Source: Klebsiella phage RCIP0053
Sequence record: OR532847.1
Strand: one strand, 5' to 3'
Length of the DNA: 44,819 bases
This document shows positions 20,220 through 22,373 of the stretch, in pieces. The position numbers were made by a program, and so were the translations under genes. Below the pieces are notes generated by a model. It did no database searches. It was given only the letters and a program-made list of their open reading frames with translations, and had not been told where the DNA came from. Numbering within the stretch: the stretch's first letter is position 1; every line of letters begins with the position of its first letter.

Positions 20220-20451
20220 CGAGGACATCAGCGGAAGTAAAACAGATTGAATTCGGTAGAGGACTAGAACAGTTAATACCGAGCGAAGCCTAGTAATAGG
20301 AACGTGTAACGACTATCCAGAAATGGAGTACACCCAAGCGGGTGGAAGCGGTCTGGTGCTACGGCACATGATATAGTCTGAGCTGCATGGGGACATGCAG
20401 AAGTTCATAAGAGAACTGGCAGGGAGTAGCGAACCCTGTTGAACACAACTG
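20220..20451 (+). mobile_element. group I intron 1 in the DNA polymerase gene (ORF-less)
   Basis: Same conserved core as the terminase intron. P1 TTCCGT(exon)/GCGGAA(20231-36). The 3' end at G20451 (or G20454) is uncertain. Confidence 0.65.
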
Positions 20452-20687
20452 ATGCGTCATCGATTTGTGGTTAACATACCAGCTCGTGGCCTGTGGCCAC
20501 TGCGTCACCTGTTCATTGCATCCAAGGGTAAGCTTATACTGGGCTGTGATGGGGCTGGCCTTGAGCTGCGTATGCTTAGTCACTTCATGAATGACCCTGA
20601 GTATCAGGACATCATTCTCACTGGTGACATCCATACACATAACCAGCTTAAGGCAGGCTTGCCTACTCGTGATATGGCTAAGACGTT
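20452..20687 (+). CDS. DNA polymerase exon 2 (motif A: LILGCDGAGLELR)
   Basis: Matches Pol I/T7 motif A and the upstream NIPAR / RHLFIA segment. Confidence 0.8.
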
Positions 20688-20782
20688 TAACACAATGGGC
20701 GTCTATAAACTCCTCTAATTCGGTGAACATCTCCAAGAGACAATACCGAGCTAAGCAGGTGGTCATAGCAACTCAATAGGAG

Positions 20783-21019
20783 GTGCTTATGATTATGTCA
20801 AACTGTAATAAGACTAAGGCAGAGCAAACTGCCGACCCTAGTAAATATCCACAAGGCTACTTTAAACCAAAGCCTTGTAAGTGTTGTAAGGAAGTATTCA
20901 CGCCTAAGGCCCCATCAGAGCTGTATTGCTCTGATACCTGTAAAGATAAAGGGTATAATGAATGCTTACTTGCAACGCAATTATGGTATCACCTTCCGCC
21001 AATACCGCCTCATGCTTGA
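20783..21019 (+). CDS. intron ORF, Cys-rich zinc-ribbon-like protein (possible N-terminal half of a frameshifted endonuclease)
   Basis: Strong RBS AGGAGG. Motif CKCCKEV...CSDTC. Overlaps the HNH ORF in another frame. Confidence 0.35.
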   Translation: MLMIMSNCNKTKAEQTADPSKYPQGYFKPKPCKCCKEVFTPKAPSELYCSDTCKDKGYNECLLATQLWYHLPPIPPHA

Positions 21020-21224
21020 AGACCAGAAAGGTTTATGCAAGATTTGTGGTAGTGAAGGTTTCATAATGAATAAGGATAGACACAAGATGAAGCTTGTAGT
21101 AGATCACTGCCACTCCACTGGTAAGGTCAGAGGCTTACTGTGTCATAACTGCAATAGGGCATTAGGTTTATTCCAAGATAGCCAAGATTCACTACTCAAA
21201 GCTATTGACTACCTGAAAGTGTAA
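20958..21224 (+). CDS. intron-encoded HNH endonuclease (endonuclease VII-like DHCHSTGKVRGLLCHNCN motif)
   Basis: Motifs YGITFRQYRLMLEDQKGLCKICG and VDHCHSTGKVRGLLCHNCNRALG. Confidence 0.7.
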   Translation: MNAYLQRNYGITFRQYRLMLEDQKGLCKICGSEGFIMNKDRHKMKLVVDHCHSTGKVRGLLCHNCNRALGLFQDSQDSLLKAIDYLKV

Positions 21225-21362
21225 CGACTAGCCGAAAGGCGTAGGGCTAAGCAGCCCGAAACGGGGAGGCTCGCAAGAGCAAGAGATAGTCTGCTCTGCA
21301 TGGTGACATGCAGCAGTTCTATAAGAACGGCCTAGGTCTAGCGAGCCTAGGTGAACATAAGG

Positions 21363-21726
21363 TATATACGCATTTTTATATGGCTCTGGCATTGATGGCC
21401 TAGCTCGCTTGGCTGGCATTAGCTTTAGTGAGATGGAACAGTGTATTGCTCGCTTCAAAGCTGAGCTACCTGCACTTGCTAAGCTCATTGAGCGTGTGGA
21501 AACTGCTGGTCGCAAGTTCGGATACCTACAAGCTATTGACGGTCGCTGGGGCCGTATTCGCCGTAAGAATGGCAAGCCACTGTTGCACACTGCACTTAAC
21601 GTATTGCTTCAGATGACTGGCTCTCTGGTTATGAAGTATGGTGAGTGCATTGCTGAGACTCAGATGATTGAGGAGGGGGTTGCATTAGACGATAAAGGTT
21701 ATCCAGCTTTCGTAGCTAACGTGCAT
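21363..21726 (+). CDS. DNA polymerase exon 3 (motif B region to motif C ...FVANVH)
   Basis: Aligns with T7 gp5 ...IYGFLYGAG ... AWVH|DE. Confidence 0.8.
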
Positions 21727-22373
21727 AGACATCATTGTGCACACGTCGAGTAATTGACGTTAAATAAACTAGGTGAACTCGGTGAAGCCTCCCGTAGGTA
21801 ATACCGAGCCAAGACTGTGGAGGTGTTATGGCTAATAGAAAGGAATTAGTCTTAGTAACAACAGAGAGTGGTTGCATTGTCCCTGTGAGTCACAAGCTGA
21901 ATCCTGATGGTTACTTTAGAAAGCAAATTAAAGGACCAGCTGGTATGCAAACTTGGATGTATCATAGATGGGTGTGGACGCAGAAGTTTGGAGTTATCCC
22001 GCCTGGCTATGAGGTTGACCACAAATGCAAGAACAGAGCCTGTTGTAACGTTGAACACTTACAGCTCCTACTGTCTACTGAACACAGGACTAAAGATAAC
22101 ACTGGTAGACACTCTGATAAGAAGCAGCAAGCTTATGAAATCTGGCTGCAACAGAATAAAAGTATTACTGGTATGGCACTTGCTGAGTTAGTAGGTGTCA
22201 GCTTTAGTGCTACATGTAAGTGGATAAGGGAGTGGAAGCAGTAAGGTGTAGAGACTATCCCGAAAGGGAGTAGGGCTAGTGGGTGAGACTCCCACTATGC
22301 TCGAAGCGCCTAGCCCCTAGTAATAGGGTGATGATATAGTCCGACACTCATAGCGATATGAGAATACAGATAG
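21727..22373 (+). mobile_element. group I intron 3 in the DNA polymerase gene, carrying an HNH ORF
   Basis: P1 GTGCAT(exon)/GTGCAC(21737-42). Terminal G22373. The splice restores motif C VH|DEVQ (T7 VHDEIQ). Confidence 0.75.
21828..22244 (+). CDS. intron-encoded HNH homing endonuclease
   Basis: HNH motif YEVDHKCKNRACCNVEHLQLL...EH. GGAGG RBS. Confidence 0.75.
   Translation: MANRKELVLVTTESGCIVPVSHKLNPDGYFRKQIKGPAGMQTWMYHRWVWTQKFGVIPPGYEVDHKCKNRACCNVEHLQLLLSTEHRTKDNTGRHSDKKQQAYEIWLQQNKSITGMALAELVGVSFSATCKWIREWKQ

Follow-up and report, generated by a model that had tools for sequence, protein, structure and literature searches.

Given that the DNA polymerase gene of Klebsiella phage RCIP0053 appears in a list of open reading frames (ORFs) as four separate polymerase-like fragments (18612-20240, 20452-20718, 21409-21753, and 22386-22706), the locus raises the question of whether the polymerase is made in pieces or whether these pieces are exons that are rejoined in the RNA. 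The window, meaning the whole stretch of DNA analyzed here, is 44,819 bp long and constitutes a complete-length podovirus genome. An earlier note made from its sequence had located the four fragments at the very positions that the ORF list gives and had attributed their separation to three group I introns. Our analysis leads to much the same answer: three mobile group I introns, acquired independently of one another, very probably interrupt the polymerase gene, whose transcript would be spliced to the mRNA for one 846-amino-acid polymerase, and a fourth, similar intron lies in the terminase gene.

The boundaries of the interruptions follow from comparison with an uninterrupted gene. The genome is placed as Gajwadongvirus-like within the Autographiviridae, a T7 relative and not an SP6/K1-5 relative, and its closest relatives in the phage collection are the Klebsiella phages Roth32, RCIP0089, and vB_Kp_Z1 and Escherichia phage ECBP5, to all of which the polymerase exon DNA is about 93% identical. 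In ECBP5 the polymerase gene is uninterrupted and encodes 855 amino acids. Its DNA aligns to the window as four colinear blocks (18602-20219, 20452-20687, 21364-21725, and 22374-22739), and at each block break the ECBP5 coordinates are adjacent to within one ambiguous base. Intron ends were then fixed by requiring a T before the intron and a G as the last intron base, which gives the following arrangement (in codons and residues, a slash marks the junction):

18612..20219, + strand: exon 1, codons 1-536, ending in NTFR, colinear with the ECBP5 polymerase
20220..20451, + strand: intron 1, 232 nt, without an ORF; P1 20214-20219/20231-20236; core P3-P9 20239-20400, followed by P9.1/P9.2
20452..20687, + strand: exon 2, 236 nt, codon 537 to two-thirds of codon 615, with 100% amino acid identity to ECBP5 546-624
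20688..21362, + strand: intron 2, 675 nt, in phase 2 inside the Phe615 codon (TT/T); P1 20681-20687/20698-20704
21363..21726, + strand: exon 3, 364 nt, codons 615 (third base) to 736, IYAFLYG to ANVH, with 99% amino acid identity to ECBP5 625-745
21727..22373, + strand: intron 3, 647 nt; P1 21721-21726/21737-21742; P2 about 21744-21761
22374..22706, + strand: exon 4, codons 737-846, starting with DEVQ, the motif C Asp/Glu, with 97% amino acid identity to ECBP5 746-855

The outer coordinates of the earlier note are thereby recovered, with 20220 opening intron 1 and 22373 closing intron 3. The base preceding the intron is a T in all four introns (three in the polymerase gene and one in the large terminase gene, terL), and the terminal G residues, which had been proposed for the polymerase introns, stand at 20451, 21362, 22373, and, in the terL intron, 1378, positions that are fixed independently by alignment to intron-less homologues.

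When the exons are joined, they form 2,541 nt with one open frame and a single terminal stop, encoding 846 amino acids as had been predicted. This protein is 94% identical to the ECBP5 polymerase with zero gaps at the junctions, the sole gap being a 15-amino-acid indel far upstream, and the junctions recreate NTFR/MRHR, AKTF/IYAFLYG, and VH/DEVQ, the latter two in agreement with the earlier proposal. Pfam DNA_pol_A (PF00476, 1.4e-22) matches the joined protein as a single stretch (544-759). The continuous alignment with family A polymerases that the earlier note had suggested as a check was obtained with T7 gp5 (residues 465-665; D475, K522, Y526, D654/E655), running through motifs A, B, and C without a break at junctions 2 and 3. 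Specifically, exon 2 holds the motif A Asp569, aligned to T7 D475; exon 3 is aligned to T7 I525-H653; and the start of exon 4 is aligned to T7 D654/E655. Junction 2 thus falls at T7 K522-Y530 in helix O/motif B and junction 3 at T7 H653-D654 in motif C, where we take the catalytic and motif roles of these gp5 residues to be established knowledge. The three insertion sites count among the most highly conserved positions in a family A polymerase: R536/M537 in the fingers, shortly upstream of the "NIP" motif; within Phe615 in helix O/motif B; and H736/D737 in motif C. Without splicing, the exon 1 frame reads through to a TAA at 20238-20240, and for the resulting read-through ORF of 542 amino acids no record was found in public assemblies.

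The interruptions themselves carry the hallmarks of group I introns. At the 5' splice sites, the P1 pairings named in the earlier note are all present (TTCCGT/GCGGAA, AGACGTT/GGCGTCT, and GTGCAT/GTGCAC), each comprising 6-7 bp with a U.G at the splice site. The Rfam group I model RF00028 matches all four introns along the full model when run in E-value mode, with E-values from a regional scan: 38.4 bits (E 1.4e-7) for intron 1, 22.5 bits (E 7.7e-3) for intron 2, 29.9 bits (E 4.7e-5) for intron 3, and 37.8 bits for the terL intron (match at 515-731). Intron 1 folded alone gives z = -4.35, and its minimum-free-energy fold shows P4, P5, P6a, P7.1, P7.2, P8, P9, P9.1, and P9.2. The cores of introns 2 and 3 are each split by an ORF, leaving in intron 2 a 5' half at 20706 to about 20766 and a 3' half at about 21203-21313, followed by P9.1/P9.2, and in intron 3 a 3' half at about 22235-22363 without P9.1/P9.2. 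RF00028 places these ORFs after P7, a placement that we rejected as wrong: the J6/7-P7 element GTGTARMGACTA comes 3' of the ORFs in both introns, which puts these ORFs in the P6a loop. The intron ORFs of PhiI, W31, and Pf-WMP3 are likewise located in the P6a loop (PMC3428280).

Four landmarks of the core, AAYTCGGT (J3/4-P4), ATACCGAG (P4'), GTGTARMGACTA (J6/7-P7), and AKATAGTC (J8/7-P7'), are each found at exactly four places in the window, always in this order and on the + strand, and the combined 3'-core pattern has four matches, compared with none in 100 shuffles. This bears out the claim that the polymerase introns have their core in common with the terminase intron, as does covariation. 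Our alignment comprised 13 ORF-deleted cores, four from the window and nine from Roth32 (two), Yepe2, 13a, DT115P1, VL73, RCIP0099, and an Acinetobacter phage (two). Under the assignment of P3, P4, P5, P6, P6a, P7, P7.1, P7.2, P8, and P9, 94.6% of 611 cells pair, and compensatory changes on both sides occur in 29 of the 48 pairs; none of 500 shuffles reached any of these measures, and sliding the partners by one to three columns lowers pairing to 30-40%. The window introns pair as well as their homologues, and all core helices are intact in the three polymerase introns. P7 (GACUA/UAGUC) is invariant and hence carries no covariation information. P3, P6a, P7.2, and P8 covary strongly even within the four window introns, where P3 reads CAGAU/GUCUG, CUCCU/GGGAG, CUAGG/CCUAG, and CCAU/AUGG. 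P7.1, which is GNRA-capped, and P7.2 also covary (95.6% and 93.8% pairing), and given these two helices the cores look like subgroup IA; the label IA2 for phage polymerase introns is taken from PMC3428280 and not from a classifier. A covariance model built from the alignment (R1) finds only the four introns within the window (165.5 bits for intron 1; 132.3 bits for the terL intron; half-matches at 20706-20834 and 21167-21313 for intron 2 and at 21765-21896 and 22187-22363 for intron 3), matches that arise by construction because the window sequences helped to build the model.

The earlier note had described the polymerase fragments as separated by HNH ORFs. An endonuclease ORF is indeed present in introns 2 and 3, each with its own ribosome-binding site, but intron 1 has none, and the gene in intron 2 is of a different type and frameshifted:

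20789..21224, + strand: Endonuclease_7-type homing endonuclease gene of intron 2, disrupted by a +1 frameshift and read as ORFs 20783-21019 and 20958-21224
21828..22244, + strand: intron-3 HNH gene, 138 amino acids, with GGAGGTG upstream of its ATG

The frameshift in intron 2 is an extra A in GATAAAGGG at about 20948-20950. The 3' ORF matches Pfam PF02945 (4.6e-24) and phrog_2633, endonuclease VII, and removing one base in GATAAAGGG restores an ORF of 144 amino acids that is 68% identical to the Yepe2 intron ORF without gaps. The intron-3 protein matches Pfam HNH_3 (PF13392, 7.3e-15) and phrog_6254, is 61% identical to the HNH protein of the 13a intron, and has an identical copy on 11 public contigs. 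Public metagenome and Logan contigs with near-identical exons, labeled L215-L227, were also compared. In these, the short run that bears the intron-2 frameshift (window 20945-20960; L215 about 5125-5135; L216 about 5125-5136) is disrupted in two ways: the window has GATAAAGGG (+1 A), L215 and L225 have GATAAGG (-1 G), and L216, L222-L224, and L226 retain the intact GATAAGGG and the ORF of 144 amino acids. Two frameshifts at one run reflect either decay that has recurred where slippage is likely or sequencing errors in a homopolymer.

Outside the polymerase gene, the window contains one further intron with the same core:

541..1378, + strand: fourth group I intron, interrupting the large terminase gene, whose exons are 1-540 and 1379-2689; P1 535-540/554-559; core 562-731

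Its P1 is GACGAT/GTCGTC, and joining the terL exons recreates ADD/IESLQ as in the intron-less terL of ECBP5. An HNH-type ORF (753-1358) lies downstream of P9 and matches the phrog_2081 HNH endonuclease (9.6e-44). RCIP0089, vB_Kp_Z1, and Edwardsiella phages share this intron, and it is missing from Roth32, ECBP5, PP99, MR4, and JSF38, so that the presence of the intron varies among relatives that are about 98% identical. Together, the four introns amount to 2,392 nt, or 5.3% of the 44.8-kb genome.

Where did these introns come from? Each polymerase site has homologues of its own. At site 1 (NTFR/MRHR), Roth32 and RCIP0089 carry an intron of 706 nt with an HNH ORF, and Erwinia phage VL73 carries an ORF-less one of 237 nt; the DNA of intron 1 is also similar to the thymidylate synthase intron of Bacillus phage beta22. 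At site 2 (AKTF/IY), the homologue is in gene 5 of Yersinia phage Yepe2, where it is 69% identical at the DNA level over its full length and annotated through a joined coding sequence. At site 3 (VH/DE), the homologues are in Edwardsiella phage DT115P1 (87.5% identical) and in gene 5 of phage 13a (67%, joined coding sequence). Roth32, RCIP0089, VL73, and the Edwardsiella phages have been deposited with separate ORFs. Among themselves the four window cores share only 61-71% identity, compared with 75-97% to their same-site homologues; being nearer to the latter, they were acquired independently. The description of the introns as one family therefore holds structurally but not in the sense of common acquisition, and the low mutual identity also ruled out a recent intragenomic duplication of one intron.

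The core of intron 1 (20239-20400) looks like a patchwork: P3-P5 matches the VL73 site-1 intron at 100% identity, P6-P7.1 the Roth32 primase/helicase intron at 98%, and P7.2-P9 the Roth32 site-1 intron at 95-100%. This pattern suggests recombination between introns, which is possibly also the route by which intron 1 lost an endonuclease gene. The primase/helicase gene of the window (15830-17842, 670 amino acids) is itself uninterrupted; in relatives, a further intron of the same family splits it (Roth32 and RCIP0089, each about 470-690; L015, 1472-2162; L217, 1689-1853). Two unannotated introns of this family, one ORF-less and one containing an HNH gene, are also found in the podovirus Acinetobacter phage vB_Ab_1137_KEN_02 (2103-3304), whose polymerase gene was deposited as three coding sequences.

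The polymerase introns are polymorphic among near-identical phages. Close sequenced relatives have zero or one, and 80 IMG/VR loci with related polymerases (705 kb) contain just two introns of this family; the window sequence itself was absent among the polymerase relatives in IMG/VR. Across phages and contigs, we found no polymerase intron (vB_Kp_Z1 and ECBP5), intron 1 alone (Roth32), intron 3 alone (L217 and DT115P1), introns 2 and 3 (L215 and L216), and introns 1 and 2 (L222-L227), with intron 1 in the last group being either HNH-bearing or ORF-less. Three polymerase introns occur in the window and in L218 (Logan SRR13279626, an 18-kb contig), whose middle intron is a different group I element of 742 nt (1806-2547) with an HNH_3 gene, inserted in the Tyr617 codon (T/AT) 5 nt downstream of site 2 of the window. 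L218 also bears a free-standing NUMOD4/HNH gene after the polymerase. Such a presence/absence mosaic among near-identical phages is the pattern that mobile introns produce. As to the "unusually high load" of the earlier note, this is justified relative to sequenced relatives, but there are precedents in L218 and in the Bastillevirinae, which have up to three introns (PMC11878797); the ranking is limited to the relatives compared, which are a part of the 1,385 polymerase-matching phage records.

Several points weigh against interpreting the gaps as functional, mobile introns. At its gathering threshold (50 bits), RF00028 reported nothing in the scan, so that the covariance-model search proposed in the earlier note succeeded in matching every intron but with all four scores below that threshold. 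Since the annotated gene-5 introns of 13a (37.9 bits) and Yepe2 (26.2 bits) are sub-threshold as well, the low score is a property of this enterobacterial podovirus lineage; as a further control, the thyA intron of Bacillus phage beta22 scored 84.5 bits. Furthermore, introns 1 and 2 are without P2, and P10 amounts to a weak pairing of 3-4 bp. The window's own sequences are part of the covariation alignment and were also the source of the structure. Two of the three polymerase introns may no longer be autonomously mobile because the intron-2 gene is frameshifted and intron 1 has no gene, and for all four introns splicing is a prediction. Taken further, the frameshifted intron-2 gene and the sub-threshold Rfam scores, together with the mosaic nature of intron 1 and the fact that the exact triple combination was not found among the public contigs listed, could mean that one or more of these group I introns have decayed and splice inefficiently, in a genome that is a defective or mis-assembled variant. 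We regard this as very unlikely: decay of an endonuclease gene leaves ribozyme function unaffected, the core helices show no sign of disruption in any of the three introns, the exons are under obvious purifying selection (94-100% amino acid identity to relatives), and single introns as well as pairwise combinations recur in independent complete-length contigs (about 44-45 kb), which speaks against assembly chimeras.

It is slightly less probable still that the gene is fractured without RNA splicing, with fragments that are translated separately and assembled noncovalently or spliced as proteins, and with endonuclease genes that are free-standing insertions. Fractured phage genes with interposed endonucleases are reportedly on record, gene callers list the pieces as separate ORFs in public records, and exon 2 starts exactly with an ATG (20452). 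However, junction 2 falls within a codon, no start codon precedes 21409 in exon 3, and the first ATG of exon 4, at 22386, lies past the Asp-Glu of motif C; because these starts lie too late, separate translation would lose essential residues, namely, the helix-O stretch IYAFLYG and the motif C Asp-Glu. Intein motifs are absent as well, and every frame runs into a stop within about 10 codons of each junction; these stops, along with the phase of junction 2, led us to reject an intein or in-frame insertion. Finally, every gap contains a group I core that is complete and covarying, together with a P1 that matches and a terminal G.

If the gaps are spliced group I introns, as we hold, the phage RNA polymerase would transcribe the entire 4.1-kb region, and each intron would fold into a P3-P9 ribozyme core with a P3/P7 pseudoknot. 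The internal guide sequence would pair with the last 6-7 exon bases, placing the U.G at the splice site, where an external guanosine bound by P7 would attack; the freed exon end would then attack after the terminal G, and the predicted outcome is an mRNA for a single 846-amino-acid polymerase. By analogy with I-TslI, I-HmuI, and I-PfoP3I, endonucleases of the intron-2 and intron-3 types may nick intron-less alleles of coinfecting relatives, with recombinational repair copying the intron in. Intron 1 is presumed to spread together with its neighbors through co-conversion, or else by means of an endonuclease acting in trans; co-conversion is plausible because exon 2 is just 236 nt long.

It is tempting to speculate, although we would wager slightly against it, that the Gajwadongvirus-like clade is a natural hot spot, not described before, for the turnover of group I introns in a small podovirus, with the window as its most intron-laden member seen so far. 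What points in this direction is the presence of at least four insertion sites within about 600 coding bases of a single essential gene (R536/M537, Phe615, Tyr617 in L218, and H736/D737), in addition to the terL and primase/helicase introns, as well as the several combinations that segregate, the mosaic intron 1, and the repeated inactivation of an endonuclease gene at one homopolymer. If true, the window would be a tractable system in which to watch the homing cycle of gain, endonuclease decay, and loss in real time. Independently of this, the combinations that segregate in near-identical genomes provide a ready-made series in which to follow homing, the co-conversion of an intron that lacks an ORF, and the decay of endonucleases.

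Three further observations concern the genome as a whole. Position 1 of the sequence coincides exactly with the terL ATG (window 1-3), as it does in the RCIP0089 and Edwardsiella phage records, which indicates an artificially re-oriented genome rather than physical ends. Downstream of the polymerase, a tRNA-like sequence (23585-23662, + strand) scores 35.3 bits with Rfam RF00005 (gathering score 29); it was missed by ARAGORN, which reported no tRNA, and by a default-filter Rfam scan. Its anticodon arm has a 13-nt loop able to form CCA-GAAA-UGG in place of the normal 7-nt loop. Roth32 and vB_Kp_Z1 carry the sequence with 100% identity, annotated there as tRNA-Ser, and it is absent from ECBP5, MR4, and JSF38. 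Lastly, the 20-nt motif TTAAGCACTACAATAGRTAT occurs in five + strand copies (15496, 22709, 23565, 23667, and 43305) with zero to three mismatches, against 0.02 expected by chance. These copies are probably promoters for the phage RNA polymerase; two flank the tRNA-like element, one follows the polymerase stop codon, and none lies inside the introns.

Because gene callers split essential polymerase and terminase genes into "hypothetical" fragments, correct exon joins matter for annotation, pangenome, and phylogeny work and for phage therapy dossiers on Klebsiella and Enterobacterales phages. Four introns in 44.8 kb are a high load for a podovirus, a density that is unusually high but not unique.

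How, then, does this locus compare with known systems? That group I introns can reside in phage family A polymerase genes has been recognized since SPO1, and for T7-like phages since 2004. Beyond this general picture, such introns are established in phages SPO1, SP82, Bastille, Pf-WMP3, phiL7, PhiI/W31, and LUZ24 (PMC3428280, PMC10914365), with polymerase sites 674, 676, and 881 listed in E. coli Pol I numbering (PMC3428280). Sites 1 and 2 of the window are not among these three; site 2 is annotated in GenBank records, and in the literature on ECBP5, Gajwadongvirus, or Autographiviridae with group I introns we found no description of the introns reported here. Site 1 lies at about residue 670 in E. 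coli numbering, an ungapped extrapolation from a Klenow alignment, and so a few codons upstream of 674 (SPO1/Pf-WMP3) and 676 (phiL7). Its closest counterparts are the site-1 introns of Roth32, RCIP0089, and VL73, with core identities to intron 1 of 91% for Roth32 and 88% for VL73; the VL73 intron is ORF-less like that of the window, whereas Roth32 and RCIP0089 have a gene for a 150-amino-acid HNH protein in P6a that intron 1 lacks. Intron 2 resembles the gene-5 intron of the Yersinia Berlinvirus phages Yepe2, Berlin, and Yep-phi, deposited as a joined coding sequence, which interrupts the same AKTF/IY point and carries an EndoVII-type P6a ORF of 144 amino acids; in contrast, the window ORF carries the +1 frameshift. 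Intron 3 shares its position, the His-Asp of motif C or "site 881", with the gene-5 group I (IA2) intron of coliphages PhiI/W31 as PMC3428280 recounts it from Bonocora & Shub (2004), a comparison by published description and not by sequence. Intron 3 and the gene-5 intron of phage 13a, at the same VH/DE site, both carry an HNH gene, which in intron 3 lies in the P6a loop. However, 13a and PhiI/W31 are Teseptimavirus, while the window is a Gajwadongvirus-like podovirus in which intron 3 is one of three in the gene.

A parallel to the overall arrangement is found in the Bastillevirinae, which, like the window, have HNH-bearing group I introns in both the family A polymerase gene and terL, and in which frameshifted endonuclease ORFs have been noted as well (PMC11878797). 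The terL intron ORF of the window even matches PHROG 2081, a family also listed there, although the Bastillevirinae are 150-kb Bacillus myoviruses and the window is a 44.8-kb enterobacterial podovirus. Taken together, the polymerase introns are a known kind of mobile element and not a new kind of system, and the window is a heavily loaded example of this element type that does not imply a new mechanism.

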